Source of the DNA: an uncultured bacterium | GTDB taxonomy: Bacteria; Patescibacteriota; Minisyncoccia; Phycocordibacterales; Phycocordibacteraceae | DNA: 64,000 nt | NCBI GenBank assembly: GCA_963759775.1 | Contig: CAVXAH010000001.1 | Span: 400,682 to 464,681 of the forward strand | Reading direction: 5' to 3' | Part shown: positions 27,207 through 56,561 of the stretch, piece after piece | Position numbering within the stretch: the first letter of the stretch is position 1 | How the letters are laid out: each line of letters begins with the position of its first letter | The notes under the pieces: generated by a model | The model's input: the letters and a program-made list of their open reading frames with translations, nothing else | What the model was told of the DNA's origin: nothing | The model's database searches: none | Made by a program: the position numbers and the translations under genes

Positions 27207-27278
27207 TATACCCAGCACTAAAGTTGCGAGTCTCATCACGCCGCACTGTCATTGCGGGATTGTTTAGTGCTGGGTATA
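27207..27278 (+). repeat. 16-bp perfect inverted repeat enclosing 40 nt
   Basis: TATACCCAGCACTAAA (27207-27222) and TTTAGTGCTGGGTATA (27263-27278). Inner hairpin CCGCA-N7-TGCGG. Confidence 0.6.
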
Positions 27279-27287
27279 CTGGCGGCT

Positions 27288-27310
27288 AACGCCCCAGGCG
27301 TTTTTTATTT
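27288..27310 (+). terminator. rho-independent terminator upstream of ndk
   Basis: AACGCC-CCA-GGCGTT followed by TTTTATTTT. Confidence 0.6.
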
Positions 27311-27317
27311 TAAAACT

Positions 27318-27902
27318 ATGGCTCACAAGAACCCAAAAGATGAACGTACGTATGTGATGATCAAGCCCGATGGCGTCAAGAAAGGACTCATCGGTGAGAT
27401 TATTAAGCGCTTTGAACAGCGCGATTTGAAGATTGTCGCGCTTGAGATGTTCCAGCCAACCCACAAAGAGATTGACGACCACTACCCGAAAGATTCAAAA
27501 TGGATTACGCGCCTAGGTGAGAAAACTCTCTCCACATATGAGAAGTACGGGTTTGATGCTATGGCGGACTTCGGTACGACCTCCGCAGAAAAGATTGGGC
27601 CTGAAATTCGCAAATGGCTTATCAATTTCATGACATCGGCGCCTCTGGTGAAAATGGTCGTTGAAGGTACGCATGCGGTTGATATGGTGCGCAAAATTGC
27701 GGGCCCTACGATGCCGTATCAAGCAGACATGGGAACTATTCGCGGAGACTTTTCAAATGACTCTCCAGCGCTAGCAAACGCCGAGAAGCGCGCAGTCGCC
27801 AATATTCTCCATGCTTCTGAAACTCCAGAAGAAGCTGAACACGAGATTGCGCATTGGTTTGGCAAGGCAAAACTGCACTCCTACAAGCGTCACGGCGAAT
27901 AA
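27318..27902 (+). CDS. ndk: nucleoside diphosphate kinase (long form with insertion)
   Basis: ERTYVMIKPDGVKKGLIGEIIKRFE...GTIRGDF...NILHASET (active-site His context). Confidence 0.88.
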   Translation: MAHKNPKDERTYVMIKPDGVKKGLIGEIIKRFEQRDLKIVALEMFQPTHKEIDDHYPKDSKWITRLGEKTLSTYEKYGFDAMADFGTTSAEKIGPEIRKWLINFMTSAPLVKMVVEGTHAVDMVRKIAGPTMPYQADMGTIRGDFSNDSPALANAEKRAVANILHASETPEEAEHEIAHWFGKAKLHSYKRHGE

Positions 27903-27915
27903 GTCGAACACGTTC

Positions 27916-28019
27916 AAAAACCTCATCTGCTTCGTTATGAGGCCCAGAGATTTCTTTCGTCGTACCACAACGTACGCCTCCAGAAATCTCTCTCCCATGC
28001 CTCGCATCTGAAGGTTTTT
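27916..28019 (+). repeat. REP-like structured element, copy A (conserved ends, variable core)
   Basis: Left end AAAAACCTCATCTGCTTCGTT, right end GCCTCGCATCTGAAGGTTTTT. Same ends occur at 56375-56473. Core has the 10-bp hairpin AGAGATTTCT/AGAAATCTCT. Confidence 0.65.
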
Positions 28020-28028
28020 AACGCATTC

Positions 28029-28054
28029 GAAACCTCGCAGATTAAGGGTTTTTT
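28029..28054 (+). repeat. solo right-end-like copy of the REP-like element / weak terminator
   Basis: GAAACCTCGCAGATTAAGGGTTTTTT resembles the right end CCTCGCATCTGAAGG(G)TTT. Confidence 0.45.
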
Positions 28055-28109
28055 GGCTCTCCACAACAAAACTCATTTGGAGTTCATGCGCGCTAGGTAT
28101 ACTTAGAAG

Positions 28110-28284
28110 CAGGGTCGTTCTTAAAAACGCAACTTGCCGTATACACGGGAGCAGTGCATTAAGGCGTCGCTTGGTGAATCCGCAAGGAATCCGATAGCCG
28201 CCGTTGCCGCACCCACCTGGCAAGATAAAGTTGCAACATTAGAACGACTCTACACAAAAGCCCTGCCGCACGCAGGGTTTTTGT
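28110..28284 (+). ncRNA. candidate structured RNA (~140-nt single long hairpin with central GCAA tetraloop) plus intrinsic terminator; class unknown (6S-like, SRP-like or riboswitch)
   Basis: TATACT at 28098-28103. Closing helix GTCGTTCT (28114-21) / AGAACGAC (28241-48), then GCAAC/GTTGC, TTGCC/GGCAA, GGCG/CGCC, with apical GCAA at 28182-28185. Terminator CCCTGC-N5-GCAGGG + TTTTTG at 28256-28284. Confidence 0.45.
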
Positions 28285-28294
28285 GTCTCCGTGC

Positions 28295-28309
28295 TACAGT
28301 TTCCAGATG
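28295..28309 (+). promoter_or_regulatory. -10 box + 6 nt + ATG (leaderless layout)
   Basis: TACAGT 28295-28300, TTCCAG, ATG 28307. Confidence 0.5.
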
Positions 28310-28663
28310 TCATTACGGTGGCTCCTTGCCGCACTTGCGTTCTCAATCGCGATTTTCTCTTTCCACCTCTACAATCTTGCCCACGATTCGTACTTTTTCT
28401 ACTGGTGGGTAGACATCCCAATGCACATCTTGGGCGGGGCACTTGTCGGCACCTTTTTTATCGCACTCGTTTCTCGCCACCGCCCGTTTTTGTTTTTGGT
28501 CGTGATGAGCATCGTTTTTGTAGGGTGGGAATTATTTGAATACACCGCAGGCCTCACTTCCGATAAACCCGGCTATGCGTTTGACACTGCGTACGATCTT
28601 CTTAATGGGGCGTTTGGAGCCGCGTTCGCATATGTCATTGCTCGTAGAACACTATGGCGCTAA
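28307..28663 (+). CDS. small 4-TM membrane protein of unknown function (118 aa)
   Basis: MSLRWLLAALAFSIAIFSF...IPMHILGGALVGTFFIAL...FLFLVVMSIVFVGWELFEY...LLNGAFGAAFAYVIA. Confidence 0.65.
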   Translation: MSLRWLLAALAFSIAIFSFHLYNLAHDSYFFYWWVDIPMHILGGALVGTFFIALVSRHRPFLFLVVMSIVFVGWELFEYTAGLTSDKPGYAFDTAYDLLNGAFGAAFAYVIARRTLWR

Positions 28664-30045
28664 AACTTACCTTCTGCGGAGGTGCAGGGAAAGTTACGGG
28701 TTCTAATTTTTTGGTTGAGGACGATACAAACAAAATACTCATTGACTGCGGCATTGAGCAGGGCAGAGATTTTTCTGAAGCATCCGTGTATGGACCTTTT
28801 CCGTACGATCCGAAAAGCATACAAGCGCTGGTGGTGACCCACGCCCACCTTGACCACGTAGGGCGCATCCCAAAGCTGGTCCGCGACGGTTTTCGAGGCA
28901 AGATTTTTATGACGCCACCGACACGTGACCTCGCAGAGCTCATTTTGCATGACTCCGTAACTCTTTTAGCGGCGGAAGCTAAACGTCGCGGACTGCCACG
29001 TCTCTACGAGGAGAAAGATGTTTCCCTTACCCTTTCTCTCGTTGAGACACTTGGCTATCACGAAGAAAAAGAGGTGGCTCCTGGGTTGTCGGTGTATCTT
29101 CGGAACACCGGGCATATTCTAGGTTCGGCAAGCGTTCGGGTAACGGGGAGTGATGGAACCACAATCGTGGTTACAAGCGATATTGGGAACTCTCCTTCGC
29201 CGCTCTTACCGGACTGGGAGGCGACGCCTGACGCCGATGCTCTTGTGATGGAAAGCGTGTACGGCGACCGTCTTCATCCGTCTGGACAAGGTCGTGTTGA
29301 GCTTTTGCGAGATACGCTTAAAAAAGCCATCGCGCGTGGAGGAGCTATCCTTATTCCGGCGTTTTCCATGGAGCGTACGCAACTCATGCTTTACGAGCTT
29401 TCAAACTTTTTTGATGCAGGGGATTTGCCTAAAATACCAGTGTTTCTGGATTCACCACTCGCGATTAAAGTTACCGACGTGTATGAAAAATACGGACCAA
29501 CGTATTTCAAGCCGGATGCAGAAGCAGAAATGAAACGAGAGGGAAGCCTGTTTGAGTTTCCATTTCTCACAAAAACACTTTCACATGAGGAATCTGAGGA
29601 CATTGCCGAGACGCCGAATCCGAAAATCATTATCGCGGGTGCAGGTATGAGCCACGGCGGTCGCATTGGTCACCACGAAGTTCGCTACTTACCCGACCCT
29701 AAAACAACTCTCTTTATGGTTGGGTATCAGGCGCCGGGAAGTCCAGGACGCCTGCTCCGAGACGGCGCCCCGATAGTTCGCTTGAATGGTCAAGAGGTAA
29801 CGGTACGTGCCAAAGTAGAGCTCCTTGAGGGCTGGTCGGCGCATGCGGACCGTGACGAGCTTTTACAGTTTGCCGAGACAGCGCTTTCTGAAAAGCGCCC
29901 AAAAATCATTTTCACCGCGCTTGGTGAGCCCTCTGCCGCACGCTTCCTTGCACAACGTATCCATGATTTCCTCGGCGCTCGTGCTGTCGTCCCCGAAGCA
30001 GGTCAGACGTGGGAGGTTACAAAACAGAGTGTCTCGCTTAAATGA
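28654..30045 (+). CDS. MBL-fold beta-CASP family nuclease (CPSF/RNA-metabolising type)
   Basis: ...ILIDCGIEQG...VVTHAHLDHVGRIPKLV...; beta-CASP region; ...GWSAHADRDELLQF. Confidence 0.85.
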   Translation: MALKLTFCGGAGKVTGSNFLVEDDTNKILIDCGIEQGRDFSEASVYGPFPYDPKSIQALVVTHAHLDHVGRIPKLVRDGFRGKIFMTPPTRDLAELILHDSVTLLAAEAKRRGLPRLYEEKDVSLTLSLVETLGYHEEKEVAPGLSVYLRNTGHILGSASVRVTGSDGTTIVVTSDIGNSPSPLLPDWEATPDADALVMESVYGDRLHPSGQGRVELLRDTLKKAIARGGAILIPAFSMERTQLMLYELSNFFDAGDLPKIPVFLDSPLAIKVTDVYEKYGPTYFKPDAEAEMKREGSLFEFPFLTKTLSHEESEDIAETPNPKIIIAGAGMSHGGRIGHHEVRYLPDPKTTLFMVGYQAPGSPGRLLRDGAPIVRLNGQEVTVRAKVELLEGWSAHADRDELLQFAETALSEKRPKIIFTALGEPSAARFLAQRIHDFLGARAVVPEAGQTWEVTKQSVSLK

Positions 30046-31247: not shown

Positions 31248-32168
31248 TCACTCTACAATCTGATTTGGGTCTGAAAGGACAATTTCAGCGCGTCCTTCGT
31301 AGGAAACGATCTTTCCGGTGAGCGTTACTTCTTTGCCGGAGTATTGGGAAAGTGAACCAAATTGCTTTACATCGTCTGCGAAAATGACGGCAGAGAAGGG
31401 ACAGGTTTTGTAGTTCGTGCAGTAGTCAAAAAAGACCGTGCCGCTTTTGGAAGTGTAGGCGCGAAGGACCCTTCCGCGCACGGAGGCGTATTCGCCGATG
31501 TGTTTCGGGGTTTCAGTAAAATCGTACACGCCACCTGAAACACTCGCGGCGGCTCCTGCCGCCGCGTTTCCTTTATAGGCTTCAAGAAGCCGTTTCAAAA
31601 TATTCTCGTATGCCTGTCGAAGCGCTGGGTCGGTGCCGATCTGGAGAATTTCGTCGTTAATGGTCGTCGCGGACTTGGTCCAGTTGTAGCTTCCAAATGC
31701 ATAGGCCTGTTCGGTCACAAGAAGCTTCAAGTGCATGATGCCATTTCCGCTTGCGTGGCGTTCCGTGACTATAGGAATTCCTGCAGAGCGCAATTTCTCG
31801 GTGATAGGCGAGCCGTAGCTATTTGAGCTCTGCTCGCTGTCCATAATTCCTTTCACCACGACGCCGCGCTTATGCGCGGCGACAAGAGCATCCGCAACGT
31901 TGCTCAAAGTGAAGGTGTAAATCGCAAAATAAATATGGTCCTCGGCTTCGTTAATGAGCGCGATGAGCTCTTGGTCGTTTTGTTTTGCATCAAGGCTATA
32001 AATAACGCGCGTGGTGCCCGCCTTGGGGGCATCAACCGTCTGAACGGGGATGCTTACTGCGGCGCCGGCTACCGGCGCCGCTTCTCTTGCCCCGGTCGTG
32101 TATCCGACACCTCCTGCGGCTATCGCAAGTACGAGCGCGACTACCGCGCGCATAAGTTTCAATTTCAT
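31248..32168 (-). CDS. membrane-anchored/secreted phospholipase-D-family nuclease with C-terminal OB-fold-like domain
   Basis: N-terminal helix MKLKLMRAVVALVLAIAAGGVG. HKD motif GIMHLKLLVTEQAYAFGSYNWTKSATTINDE. C-terminus ...GEYASVRGRVLRAYTSKSGTVFFDYC...GKEVTLTGKIVSYEGRAEIVL. Confidence 0.8.
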   Translation of the reverse strand: MKLKLMRAVVALVLAIAAGGVGYTTGAREAAPVAGAAVSIPVQTVDAPKAGTTRVIYSLDAKQNDQELIALINEAEDHIYFAIYTFTLSNVADALVAAHKRGVVVKGIMDSEQSSNSYGSPITEKLRSAGIPIVTERHASGNGIMHLKLLVTEQAYAFGSYNWTKSATTINDEILQIGTDPALRQAYENILKRLLEAYKGNAAAGAAASVSGGVYDFTETPKHIGEYASVRGRVLRAYTSKSGTVFFDYCTNYKTCPFSAVIFADDVKQFGSLSQYSGKEVTLTGKIVSYEGRAEIVLSDPNQIVE

Positions 32169-32297
32169 CCCGTTAGAGGTAGGAAATCGTCAGACGATTT
32201 CCGTACAATTATGAACGAACGTATTAAATTTTGACCATCTCATTCAAGTAATGGTAGCACCGACTGATCTGCGGTTTTCACCTCTAACGGGATTCAT
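32164..32297 (-). mobile_element. MITE-like TIR element, family 1, copy 1 (123 bp) with flanking ATGAA direct repeats, sitting on the start codon of the PLD nuclease gene
   Basis: Minus strand reads TATGAT-GTGCCC-ATGAAT | CCCGTTAGAGGT ... GGAAATCG-TCTGA-CGATTTCC-T-ACCTCTAACGGG | ATGAAA (gene start). Plus-strand TIRs at 32169-32180 and 32280-32291. Confidence 0.6.
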
Positions 32298-48339: not shown

Positions 48340-48428
48340 GGAGGGGTGGCTGAGCGGCTGAAAGCGGCAGGTTGCTAACTTGCTATACGGGTAAAACCGT
48401 ATCGAGGGTTCGAATCCCTCCCCTTCCG
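48340..48428 (+). tRNA. tRNA-Ser (anticodon GCU), class II with long variable arm; CCA not encoded
   Basis: Hand fold: acceptor GGAGGGG/CCCTTCC (one G-U pair); D arm GCT-GAGCGGCTGAA-AGC; anticodon arm GCAGG-TTGCTAA-CTTGC; variable arm TACGG-GTAAAA-CCGTA; T arm GAGGG-TTCGAAT-CCCTC. Confidence 0.9.
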
Positions 48429-51736: not shown

Positions 51737-51863
51737 ATGAATCCCGTTAGAGGTAAACTACAGGCGAGTTAATGATATTCTTAATGAGATGATAAGGTCG
51801 AATTTATTACTTTCGTTAATAATCGTACGGAAATCTCAGATTTCCTACCTCTAACGGGATGAA
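51737..51863 (+). mobile_element. MITE-like TIR element, family 1, copy 2 (116 bp) with flanking ATGAA direct repeats, sitting on the pilB start codon
   Basis: TAGATT-CACGGT-ATGAAT | CCCGTTAGAGGT (51743-54) ... GGAAATC-TCA-GATTTCC (51829-45) T ACCTCTAACGGG (51847-58) | ATGAAC (pilB). Confidence 0.6.
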
Positions 51864-53676
51864 CTTTCTCACCACACTGGTTGACACCAACCTTCTTTCT
51901 GCGAAGGATCGCCTTGAGGTAGAAGCACGTCTTGAAAAGGGCACACCACTGAAAGAGGCGCTTCTTGAGCGAGGTGTCGTGCTTGCGGATGCGCTCACAA
52001 AAGCAGGAGACGCATACGGAATCCCATCACGCGTACTTTCCGACCCACCTGCCGACCAGGACGTCTTCAGATATATTCCCCTTGAGTCTGCAAAACATTA
52101 CGGATTCGTACCGCTTGCAGAGGTGAACGGGGCGCTTGAAGTGGGCATCATTGACCCCGACAACATAGAGGCGATGGACGCACTCCATTTCATTAGCGGC
52201 AAACTCGGGCTTCCGTACAAAATATTTCTGATCACAAAAGAGGACTTTGATCGCGTTATAGAGGCTTATCAAAACCTTTCGGGCGAAGTCGGGAAAGCCC
52301 TTTCCGAATTTGAAACAGCCGCCGCCGCGCCTGTGCCGAAAACAGAACGAACCGAGAAATCTATGCGCGCGCTCCCCGAAGAGGAGATGCTTGATCTTGC
52401 GGGTCGCTCGGACGCGCTTCAAGAAGATACGATGACGAATCTGGAAGGACGTTCGGAAACACTTAAAGAAGACGCGCCAGTCACCAAGATTGTCTCTACG
52501 ATTCTCCGGTATGCTATTGAAGGTCAGGCTTCGGACGTACATATAGAGCCGTCTCCTACAAAAACGAGAGTGCGTTTTCGTATGGATGGAGAGCTTCATA
52601 CCTCGCTTGAGCTGCCAGCTAAGGTGCACGAAGCAGTCGTTGCGCGCATCAAAATTGTCTCCAAATTGCGACTTGATGAGAAACGAAAACCGCAAGACGG
52701 TCGGTTTTCTGCGACCGTTGAAAAACGTCGCATAGACTTTCGCGTTTCCACGTTTCCAACCGACTTCGGGGAAAAAGTGGTGATGCGTATTCTTGACCAG
52801 TCGCAGACAACGGCGACCCTTGAGTCGGTGGGACTTACGAATGAAAACCTTTCTACGGTCCGCGATCTTCTTAAAGTGCCATACGGCATCGTGCTTATTT
52901 CGGGTCCGACGGGCTCCGGCAAGTCAACGACACTTTTTGCCATGCTCTCCGAGCTCGACCGCGAAACATTAAATGTCGTGTCGCTTGAAGACCCTATTGA
53001 GTATCAAATTCCCGGTGTTTCTCAGAGCCAGGTAAGACCAGAAATCGGTTATACCTTTGCGTCGGGCCTCCGTTCAATTCTGCGCCAAGACCCAGACGTC
53101 ATCATGGTGGGTGAAATTCGTGATAAAGAAACAGCCGCACTTGCGGTGCAGGCGGCGCTGACCGGTCACTTGGTTTTCTCAACCATCCACACCAACACCG
53201 CTGCAGGTGCTATTTCGCGCCTTGTTGATATGGGTGTTGACCCCTACCTTATCGCACCGACCCTGGTTGCCGTCATGGGTCAACGTCTCGTGCGCAAGCT
53301 TTGTGAAGGGGCGGGGAAACCGGTTCCGATGAAAGATAGTATCAAGGGTCTTCTTGAAAAAGAATTTGCGGACTTGCCGGAACAGTACCGCAAGAAACTT
53401 CCTCCCTTTAAACAATTCTACCGAGCCGCACCAACCGAGGACTGTCCGAATGGACTTCGTGGCCGGCTGGGCGTATTTGAAATACTCAAAGTCACCGACA
53501 CGCTTGAAAGAGCGATTCTGGAAAGCCCCGTTGAGGAAAAGATTTACCAAGCGGCACGGAAGGAAGGAATGTTTACTATGCGTGAAGATGCCATCATTCG
53601 CGCACTTGCCGGTGAGATTCCTTTTGAAGAAGTAAATACACTCGGGGGAGACCTTTTCCCCGAAGAGCGCACTTGA
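51859..53676 (+). CDS. pilB: type IV pilus assembly ATPase PilB (GspE family)
   Basis: Walker A GPTGSGKSTT; ...LRQDPDVIMVGEIRD...; TGHLVFSTIHTN; N-terminal MshEN-like domain. Confidence 0.95.
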   Translation: MNFLTTLVDTNLLSAKDRLEVEARLEKGTPLKEALLERGVVLADALTKAGDAYGIPSRVLSDPPADQDVFRYIPLESAKHYGFVPLAEVNGALEVGIIDPDNIEAMDALHFISGKLGLPYKIFLITKEDFDRVIEAYQNLSGEVGKALSEFETAAAAPVPKTERTEKSMRALPEEEMLDLAGRSDALQEDTMTNLEGRSETLKEDAPVTKIVSTILRYAIEGQASDVHIEPSPTKTRVRFRMDGELHTSLELPAKVHEAVVARIKIVSKLRLDEKRKPQDGRFSATVEKRRIDFRVSTFPTDFGEKVVMRILDQSQTTATLESVGLTNENLSTVRDLLKVPYGIVLISGPTGSGKSTTLFAMLSELDRETLNVVSLEDPIEYQIPGVSQSQVRPEIGYTFASGLRSILRQDPDVIMVGEIRDKETAALAVQAALTGHLVFSTIHTNTAAGAISRLVDMGVDPYLIAPTLVAVMGQRLVRKLCEGAGKPVPMKDSIKGLLEKEFADLPEQYRKKLPPFKQFYRAAPTEDCPNGLRGRLGVFEILKVTDTLERAILESPVEEKIYQAARKEGMFTMREDAIIRALAGEIPFEEVNTLGGDLFPEERT

Positions 53677-56363: not shown

Positions 56364-56374
56364 AGGCGTCTCCC

Positions 56375-56473
56375 AAAACCCTCATCTGCTTCGTTGCTCG
56401 TTCCGGTGCTCATTCACCGTATGTTGAATACGGCTCACTTCGCTCCTCACTCACGCCTCGCATCTGAAGGGTT
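56375..56473 (+). repeat. REP-like structured element, copy B
   Basis: AAAACCCTCATCTGCTTCGTT ... GCCTCGCATCTGAAGGGTTT. Same ends as 27916-28019 with an unrelated core (hairpin CCGTAT-GTTGA-ATACGG). Confidence 0.65.
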
Positions 56474-56561
56474 TATGGGACACGCCTGGAGCTATCCACA
56501 GTACCCTCTACAGGGAGGGTGAAATGGCTTACAATAGACCCATTAACTTTTAAAACAGCAT

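Follow-up and report, generated by a model that had tools for sequence, protein, structure and literature searches.

Here we describe a small RNA gene that is probably a divergent 6S RNA (ssrS-type) gene of a Patescibacteria bacterium. 6S RNA sequesters RNA polymerase by its likeness to an open promoter; this small RNA is a global regulator of the housekeeping polymerase. Our assignment follows from four observations: 6S is the best match of two related lineages, the core motif is shared, the architecture corresponds, and covariance model R1 together with synteny provides a transitive link between these lineages and the gene studied here. Judged from its sequence signals and its conservation, the element is a real, conserved small RNA that is predicted to be independently transcribed.

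The gene lies in the window, by which we mean the whole 64-kb stretch of DNA that was analysed; from each relative about 8 kb was covered. The host is an ultra-small Patescibacteria/CPR bacterium resembling Kaiserbacteria/Paceibacteria. Within the window the RNA element occupies a 380-nt spacer with an ndk-like gene on one side and a small membrane ORF on the other (Table 1). The wider gene order reads adk-map-(small ORF)-ndk-RNA-(membrane)-RNase, followed by rplT/rpmI/infC on the other strand. A protein scan with ndk, taking one genome per species, yielded 61 loci, and the close ones all come from Patescibacteria MAGs with labels such as Kaiserbacteria, Paceibacterota, Parcubacteria and similar. 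An ORF of 92 aa (28134-28412) overlaps the RNA, but any frame is broken by 4- and 7-nt insertions in orthologues.

Table 1. Coordinates in the window of the RNA gene, its predicted parts and the flanking genes.
Feature	Position	Strand	Remarks
ndk-like gene	27252-27902		Pfam NDK
-10 promoter box TATACT	28098-28103	+	same distance before the closing stem in nearly all close orthologues
Whole predicted transcript, about 175 nt	28109-28286	+	6S-like rod (28109-28254), then intrinsic terminator
Closing stem, 5′ strand GTCGTTCT	28111-28121	+	partner AGAACGAC at 28241-28251
Downstream duplex (P2), 5′ strand GCAAC	28129-28133	+	pairs with GUUGC 28230-28234
Central bubble, 5′ strand UUGCCGUAUACAC, 13 nt	28134-28146	+	unpaired in the Rfam 6S alignment
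Apical (upstream) stem	28147-28214	+	invariant GGG 28147-49 to invariant CCC 28212-14
GCAA apical loop	28182-85	+	lineage-specific
Central bubble, 3′ strand ACCUGGCAAGAUAAA, 15 nt	28215-28229	+	ACCU continues the invariant CCCAC.U motif
Closing stem, 3′ strand AGAACGAC	28241-28251	+	partner 28111-28121
Intrinsic terminator	28252-28286	+	stem 28252-66 / 28272-86, loop CGCAC, then U-run
-10 box TACAGT of downstream gene	28295-28300	+	ATG at 28307
Small membrane ORF	28307-28663		ATG at 28307, 20 nt past terminator; overlaps RNase gene start
Beta-CASP/RMMBL ribonuclease gene	28654-30045		start overlapped by membrane ORF

An earlier note on this DNA had drawn attention to a long hairpin at this site, and the hairpin holds up as a real structure: RNAfold gives the region 28098-28290 on the plus strand a free energy of -74.1 kcal/mol (z = -5.3), and none of 200 dinucleotide shuffles folds as well. 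Without the terminator, the rod alone (28108-28254) still has a z of -3.2; the minus strand reaches only -2.6. The -10 box, the closing stem, GCAAC/GTTGC, TTGCC/GGCAA, the GCAA loop and the terminator proposed in that note were all found in place, as were the arms GUCGUUCU/AGAACGAC, which form the closing stem of a rod of about 146 nt. The terminator has a core stem GCCCUGC/GCAGGGU, which A/U pairing extends. Its palindrome emerged both from the fold and from a terminator scan, the scan placing the same palindrome on the minus strand.

In the 6S register, the window RNA has a bubble of 13 nt on one strand and 15 nt on the other, a duplex CGCAAC/GUUGCA, and the apical stem given in Table 1. The free RNA of the window copy is predicted to fold somewhat differently, with the bubble partly closed by UUGCC/GGCAA (28134-38 with 28219-23) and 8 x 4 nt left open; these bases would belong to the central bubble in the 6S register. 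Within the close family, covariation of the UUGCC/GGCAA helix was no better than in shuffles and none was seen in the core of the alternative hairpin, because the close-family sequences are too conserved. Of the pairing arms originally proposed, the closing stem is borne out by covariation, while the TTGCC/GGCAA helix stays without such support. The RNA has the rod architecture of 6S, namely a closing stem, a large central bubble and an apical stem, with covariation in the stems, with the caveat that in the window subgroup the bubble of the free RNA can close by 5 bp, a pairing that lacks covariation support.

The RNA is kept at one site, between ndk and the beta-CASP RNase gene, in 18 closely related Patescibacteria genomes. 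BLASTN, nhmmer and the covariance model R1, which was built from alignment A3 and represents one narrow clade, place it directly after ndk and on the same strand in 18/18 loci with 76-85% identity of ndk. On 28109-28254 R1 reaches 129.9 bits, and a search with it for a second copy in the 64-kb window found none. Divergent forms occur in at least 10 further genomes. Nine more loci (L033, L029, L032, L024, L025, L028, L030, L045 and L019) match R1 weakly (E between 1e-4 and 0.5), with position and strand unchanged; at four further loci R1 matches lie 2-3 kb from ndk, and a member at L020 was added by a motif scan.

Compensatory change is abundant in these homologous intergenic regions, in the closing and apical stems alike, which answers favourably the covariation check that the earlier note had proposed. 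In an alignment of 19 orthologues, 91.3% of the cells are paired, compared with 79.8% for shuffles and no more than 51% after sliding of the partners; double-sided changes affect 21/34 pairs, and none of 500 shuffles reaches any of the five measures. The closing stem comprises 13 alignment pairs, of which 10 show double-sided compensatory changes, with 92% of cells paired. The inner apical helices (helices 3-6) covary in the 19 orthologues as well. The GCAAC/GUUGC duplex and the GGG/CCC junction show no variation in this set, so that the duplex (helix 2), although 97% of its cells are paired, displays no covariation. Frequent G-U pairs (for example UG:10 at two closing-stem positions) are compatible with the plus strand only.

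Conservation is concentrated mid-rod and not at the tip. Across 28 family sequences nothing is invariant but two sets of columns, the 5′ GG(G) and the 3′ CCCAC.U, which close the base of the apical stem and run on into the 3′ strand of the internal bubble. In the close family a block of 10 nt, ACGCAACUUG, is invariant too; it contains the GCAAC of the downstream duplex and is the predicted pRNA template region. The 5′ bubble strand varies in sequence among orthologues. At the tip, the apex GGUGAAUCC-GCAA-GGAA is common to about nine close relatives, and the other orthologues carry unrelated apical sequences, with GCAG, GUAA, GUGA, UUUA, CAUUUUA or a 10-nt loop. In the RNA of one relative the junction motif is duplicated (L012:4775-4815, GGGAUACCCACUUGGGACUGAGCGGAUACCCACCUAGC), and a second CCCAC.U copy therefore lies in its apical part. 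A MAFFT alignment of the broad family (A5) aligned the core; the divergent closing stems it did not align, and for this reason no second model was built from it.

Sequence signals on either side of the rod predict a stand-alone transcription unit that runs from a TATACT promoter through about 175 nt to an intrinsic terminator. Transcription is predicted to start at about 28109-28111. In almost all of the 19 close orthologues, 6-8 nt separate TATACT (or TATAAT/TAGAAT) from the closing stem, and most distant family members have such a box at the same distance; a generic sigma-70 scan for a full -35/-10 pair at the RNA gene returned none. Directly after the rod, every orthologue has a stem and U-run terminator, with differing sequences. 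Both the promoter box and the terminator first noticed in the window copy are thus conserved across orthologues.

The gene downstream is not constant. In most loci the RNase gene follows directly, in six loci and in the window a membrane gene is inserted, and at some loci 190-460 nt lie between the RNA and the next gene. A TAnAGT-type -10 box lies 6-10 nt before the ATG of the next gene at nearly all loci. Genes after the RNA (window 28295-28309; L001-L018) have such TAnAGT/TATACT-type boxes and no Shine-Dalgarno sequence; leaderless mRNAs therefore seemingly rule at this locus across the lineage. From these signals, the downstream mRNAs seem to be leaderless, with promoters of their own.

Upstream of the RNA's promoter, a DnaA-box-like motif, T[TAC]TCCACA (compare TTATCCACA), occurs on the plus strand at a fixed distance in 10/28 family loci, where about 0.5 loci would be expected by chance. 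About 39 nt separate it from the first paired base of the RNA, and about 20 nt from the -10 box, both of which lie downstream (for example at L014:5185-5194, L002:4607-4616, L005:4632-4641 and others); the window copy (28057-28066) lies about 10 nt further upstream. The motif may be a regulator site on the promoter of the RNA.

The link to 6S was drawn by searching short stretches against 4227 Rfam families, for which the 6S family (RF00013) has a gathering score of 46.4 bits. RF00013 is the top match of all 4227 families for the L032 member (24.7 bits, E = 0.0016). It is also the top match for L020, an independent lineage, whose alignment is full-length over model positions 1-187 (23.7 bits, E = 0.0024). 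The L024 member (12.1 bits, E = 1.3) aligns in the same register, 6S not being its top match, and the same holds for the window copy, with a score that is not significant (10.4 bits, E = 3.4). All four tested members align to the same region of the 6S model (positions about 36-151, or 1-187). None of the family members reaches the gathering score of 46.4, so that they fall outside Rfam's own membership criterion.

At gathering level, 37 related loci returned only tRNAs and a tmRNA and no 6S, and the whole 64-kb window returned one tRNA and nothing else. An E-value scan of 27850-28350 gave chance matches only (rnk leader, OrzO-P, ROSE_3), and it took a search confined to the rod to bring out the 6S alignment to the window copy. 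Run in the opposite direction, R1 did not match ssrS at the E. coli ssrS locus (L062), a null result that is uninformative because R1 represents a narrow clade and E. coli is without the GGG/CCC junction. In the cmscan comparison advised in the earlier note, 6S comes top for two relatives, with all scores below threshold, and neither SRP (E <= 10) nor riboswitch families match.

The Rfam 6S model consensus line reads ...GGGagcccucuu...agagggcaCCCACCUgg..., and in its core, ...GGGagccc...gggcaCCCACCUgg..., the positions invariant in our family are in upper case, with the family's CCCAC.U corresponding to the upper-case CCCACCU. The family-invariant bases are therefore the most conserved positions of the 6S model. 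The model also aligns the window's CGCAAC/GUUGCA to its own uGAgCC/GGuUCa helix. The 6S-like rod with a central bubble, one of several options in the earlier note, is accordingly the only one that survives: GGG/CCCAC.U coincides with the 6S core, and 6S is the best Rfam match of two relatives.

As a known system, 6S (RF00013; E. coli SsrS, B. subtilis 6S-1) shares with the present RNA a stand-alone gene of about 150-190 nt and the succession of closing stem, bubble of about 13-15 nt per strand and apical stem with GGG/CCCACCU flanks. A hairpin of the 3′ bubble with the 3′ strand of the downstream duplex, known from E. coli-type 6S, is predicted for most members of our family, a conserved segment predicted as pRNA template lies beside the bubble, and both genes are monocistronic, with a -10 box, a terminator and family-level synteny. 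The window RNA and its family differ from 6S in several respects: RF00013 scores are 10-25 bits against the gathering score, the closing stem falls short of that of 6S, with about 11-13 bp and one internal loop, part of the bubble in the window subgroup is complementary to itself, the rod passes at its 3′ end straight into the intrinsic terminator hairpin, and the context is ndk / beta-CASP RNase rather than ygfA or rarA. For lactic acid bacteria, monocistronic 6S genes that have a TATAAT box and a terminator are described, with family-level synteny and a pRNA-coding segment conserved to about position 11 (PMC8414754). The invariant ACGCAACUUG block parallels this conserved segment.

In E. coli-type 6S, pRNA synthesis opens the downstream duplex, and the 3′ strand of P2, once freed, pairs with the 3′-bubble nucleotides 132-136 (CCUUG), which follow A131, in a release hairpin (PMC8876501). 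In our family the 3′ bubble starts with A-CCUGG, A-CCUAG, A-CGUGG or A-CUUAG. A hairpin that begins 1-3 nt after the conserved A, with its second arm supplied by the 3′ half of the downstream duplex, is predicted in 28/29 members, by per-sequence minimum-free-energy folds that are biased towards pairing. Its pair types vary at fixed offsets (CG/GC/UA at offset 2, GC/GU/AU at offset 4). Compared with shuffles, the 30-nt 3′ segments have a mean z of -1.2, with 21/32 members below -1. The hairpin of the window copy is weak, GCAA (28220-23) pairing with UUGC (28231-34) over 4 bp at z = -0.16. In two members three segments are related, the proximal 3′ copy repeating the 5′ strand and the distal 3′ arm being complementary to both: CUUAG, CUUAG and CUAAG in L019, and CUAC, CUAC and GUAG in L028. 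These folding predictions make the release-hairpin trait supportive for the family; for the window copy they point neither way.

From characterised 6S RNAs we infer how the window RNA would bind polymerase, template pRNA and be released. The bubble would mimic an open promoter, and the RNA would occupy the active-site cleft of the housekeeping sigma-RNA polymerase holoenzyme. When NTP levels rise, polymerase would copy the 5′ bubble strand, the predicted template-strand region for the pRNA start, and the invariant CAAGUUGCGU-encoding segment into a short pRNA. This pRNA is predicted to contain roughly 5′-CAAGUUGCGUUUU-3′ and to start opposite a U or C somewhere within 28134-28142. Its synthesis would unzip the downstream duplex, whose freed 3′ strand could go on to form a hairpin with the 3′ bubble strand (ACCUGG...), upon which the polymerase would be released.

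Other readings have to be weighed against a 6S RNA. The gene could encode a lineage-specific stand-alone small RNA with another function (protein-binding or bistable regulatory), possibly linked to the beta-CASP enzyme, its likeness to 6S being convergent. We hold this to be rather unlikely. Every 6S model score is below the gathering threshold, the synteny with the beta-CASP/RMMBL RNase gene is tight in most loci, and the invariant 10-nt ACGCAACUUG is equally possible as a protein or RNA recognition site. However, 6S is the best of the 4227 families in two independent lineages and in the same register, and the architecture, the bubble size and the 3′-bubble hairpin all fit 6S. The synteny, for its part, is explained by the gene order adk-map-ndk-RNase-rplT, which is generally conserved. 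It is likewise unlikely, and slightly more so, that the RNA is not a functional 6S at all, being instead a bistable RNA found in Paceibacteria-type CPR alone, derived from 6S or convergent on it, with another partner; one candidate under such a non-6S reading is the beta-CASP ribonuclease, which is always nearby, and another is a DnaA-linked circuit, at which the DnaA-box-like motif upstream hints. A cis-acting leader, riboswitch or attenuator that controls terminator read-through into the membrane-protein / beta-CASP operon is what the short distance of about 20 nt between the terminator end and the next start codon would suggest. Some RNases autoregulate via structured leaders, the downstream operon encodes an RNase, and the 3′ segment of the RNA is bistable. 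With terminating riboswitches and RNase leaders (for example the rne 5′ UTR) the element shares a structured RNA and a terminator before an RNase-containing coding region. It departs from them in having a variable downstream gene with its own promoter and no overlap of terminator and antiterminator. As described above, the adjacent gene and its distance change between loci, and almost all downstream genes possess a TAnAGT-type -10 box of their own. The terminator stands apart from the rod, so that no antiterminator alternative is visible, and a search of this element against the cis-regulatory (riboswitch) families of Rfam gave no match. The riboswitch option raised in the earlier note has accordingly become quite improbable.

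Two further readings can be given hardly any credence. SRP helix 8 has a GNAR-type tetraloop closed by UCC/GGA, and the likeness of the window apex to it had suggested a divergent SRP (4.5S) RNA in which the apical GCAA and its flanks are the Ffh-binding helix 8. With 4.5S RNA (Bacteria_small_SRP) the window copy does share its form, one long hairpin whose ends are paired, and a GNAR-type tetraloop, GCAA, that UCC/GGA closes. Unlike 4.5S RNA, it matches no SRP model at E <= 10, even in a search of the 154-nt rod, and lacks the symmetric and asymmetric loop motifs, including the conserved 3′ AGCA; the apex with its loops varies among orthologues, GGUGAAUCC-GCAA-GGAA being replaced, and the conserved bases lie mid-rod. 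The SRP identity is effectively refuted. A non-functional palindromic repeat (MITE/REP-like), or merely an elaborate ndk terminator, might be thought of, as the other hairpin in the same spacer (27903-28030) has a partial second copy in the window. The rod, however, has its own promoter and is kept with compensatory changes at one syntenic site across genomes whose ndk is about 70-85% identical. It is single-copy in the 64-kb window, and on this ground the repeat/MITE reading is rejected.

If the RNA is 6S, ultra-small and host-dependent Patescibacteria retain growth-phase control despite genome reduction, and the standard Rfam 6S model misses such genes at its threshold. A search for papers on 6S RNA together with CPR/Patescibacteria found none in the collection searched, which is no proof of novelty. 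The RNA is an ordinary, expected kind of gene in an under-annotated lineage and involves no new mechanism. Its main value lies in annotating and understanding transcription control in Patescibacteria: alignment A3, model R1 and the ndk-linked synteny offer practical means to annotate 6S in these bacteria, with the pRNA template predicted.

Some further elements of the window deserve mention. The sole gathering-level Rfam match in the 64 kb is a tRNA with a long variable arm at 48340-48428 (+), scoring 54.3 bits. The second long hairpin of the ndk-RNA spacer, 27903-28030 (+), folds with z = -4.2. Both its ends recur in another intergenic spacer, at 56374-56395 / 56446-56474, with 86-95% identity, and a search of the 61 related loci revealed no counterpart. 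This hairpin is probably either a small intergenic element that is repeated or an insertion specific to the strain. Two adjacent inverted-repeat pairs join 32161-32230 and 51801-51866, which are 19.6 kb apart, with 28 nt complementary at 96% and 35 nt at 89%. Related direct repeats with CCTCTAACGGGAT stand at 32269 and 47131, and the inverted repeats possibly mark the two ends of a segment that is mobile or invertible.
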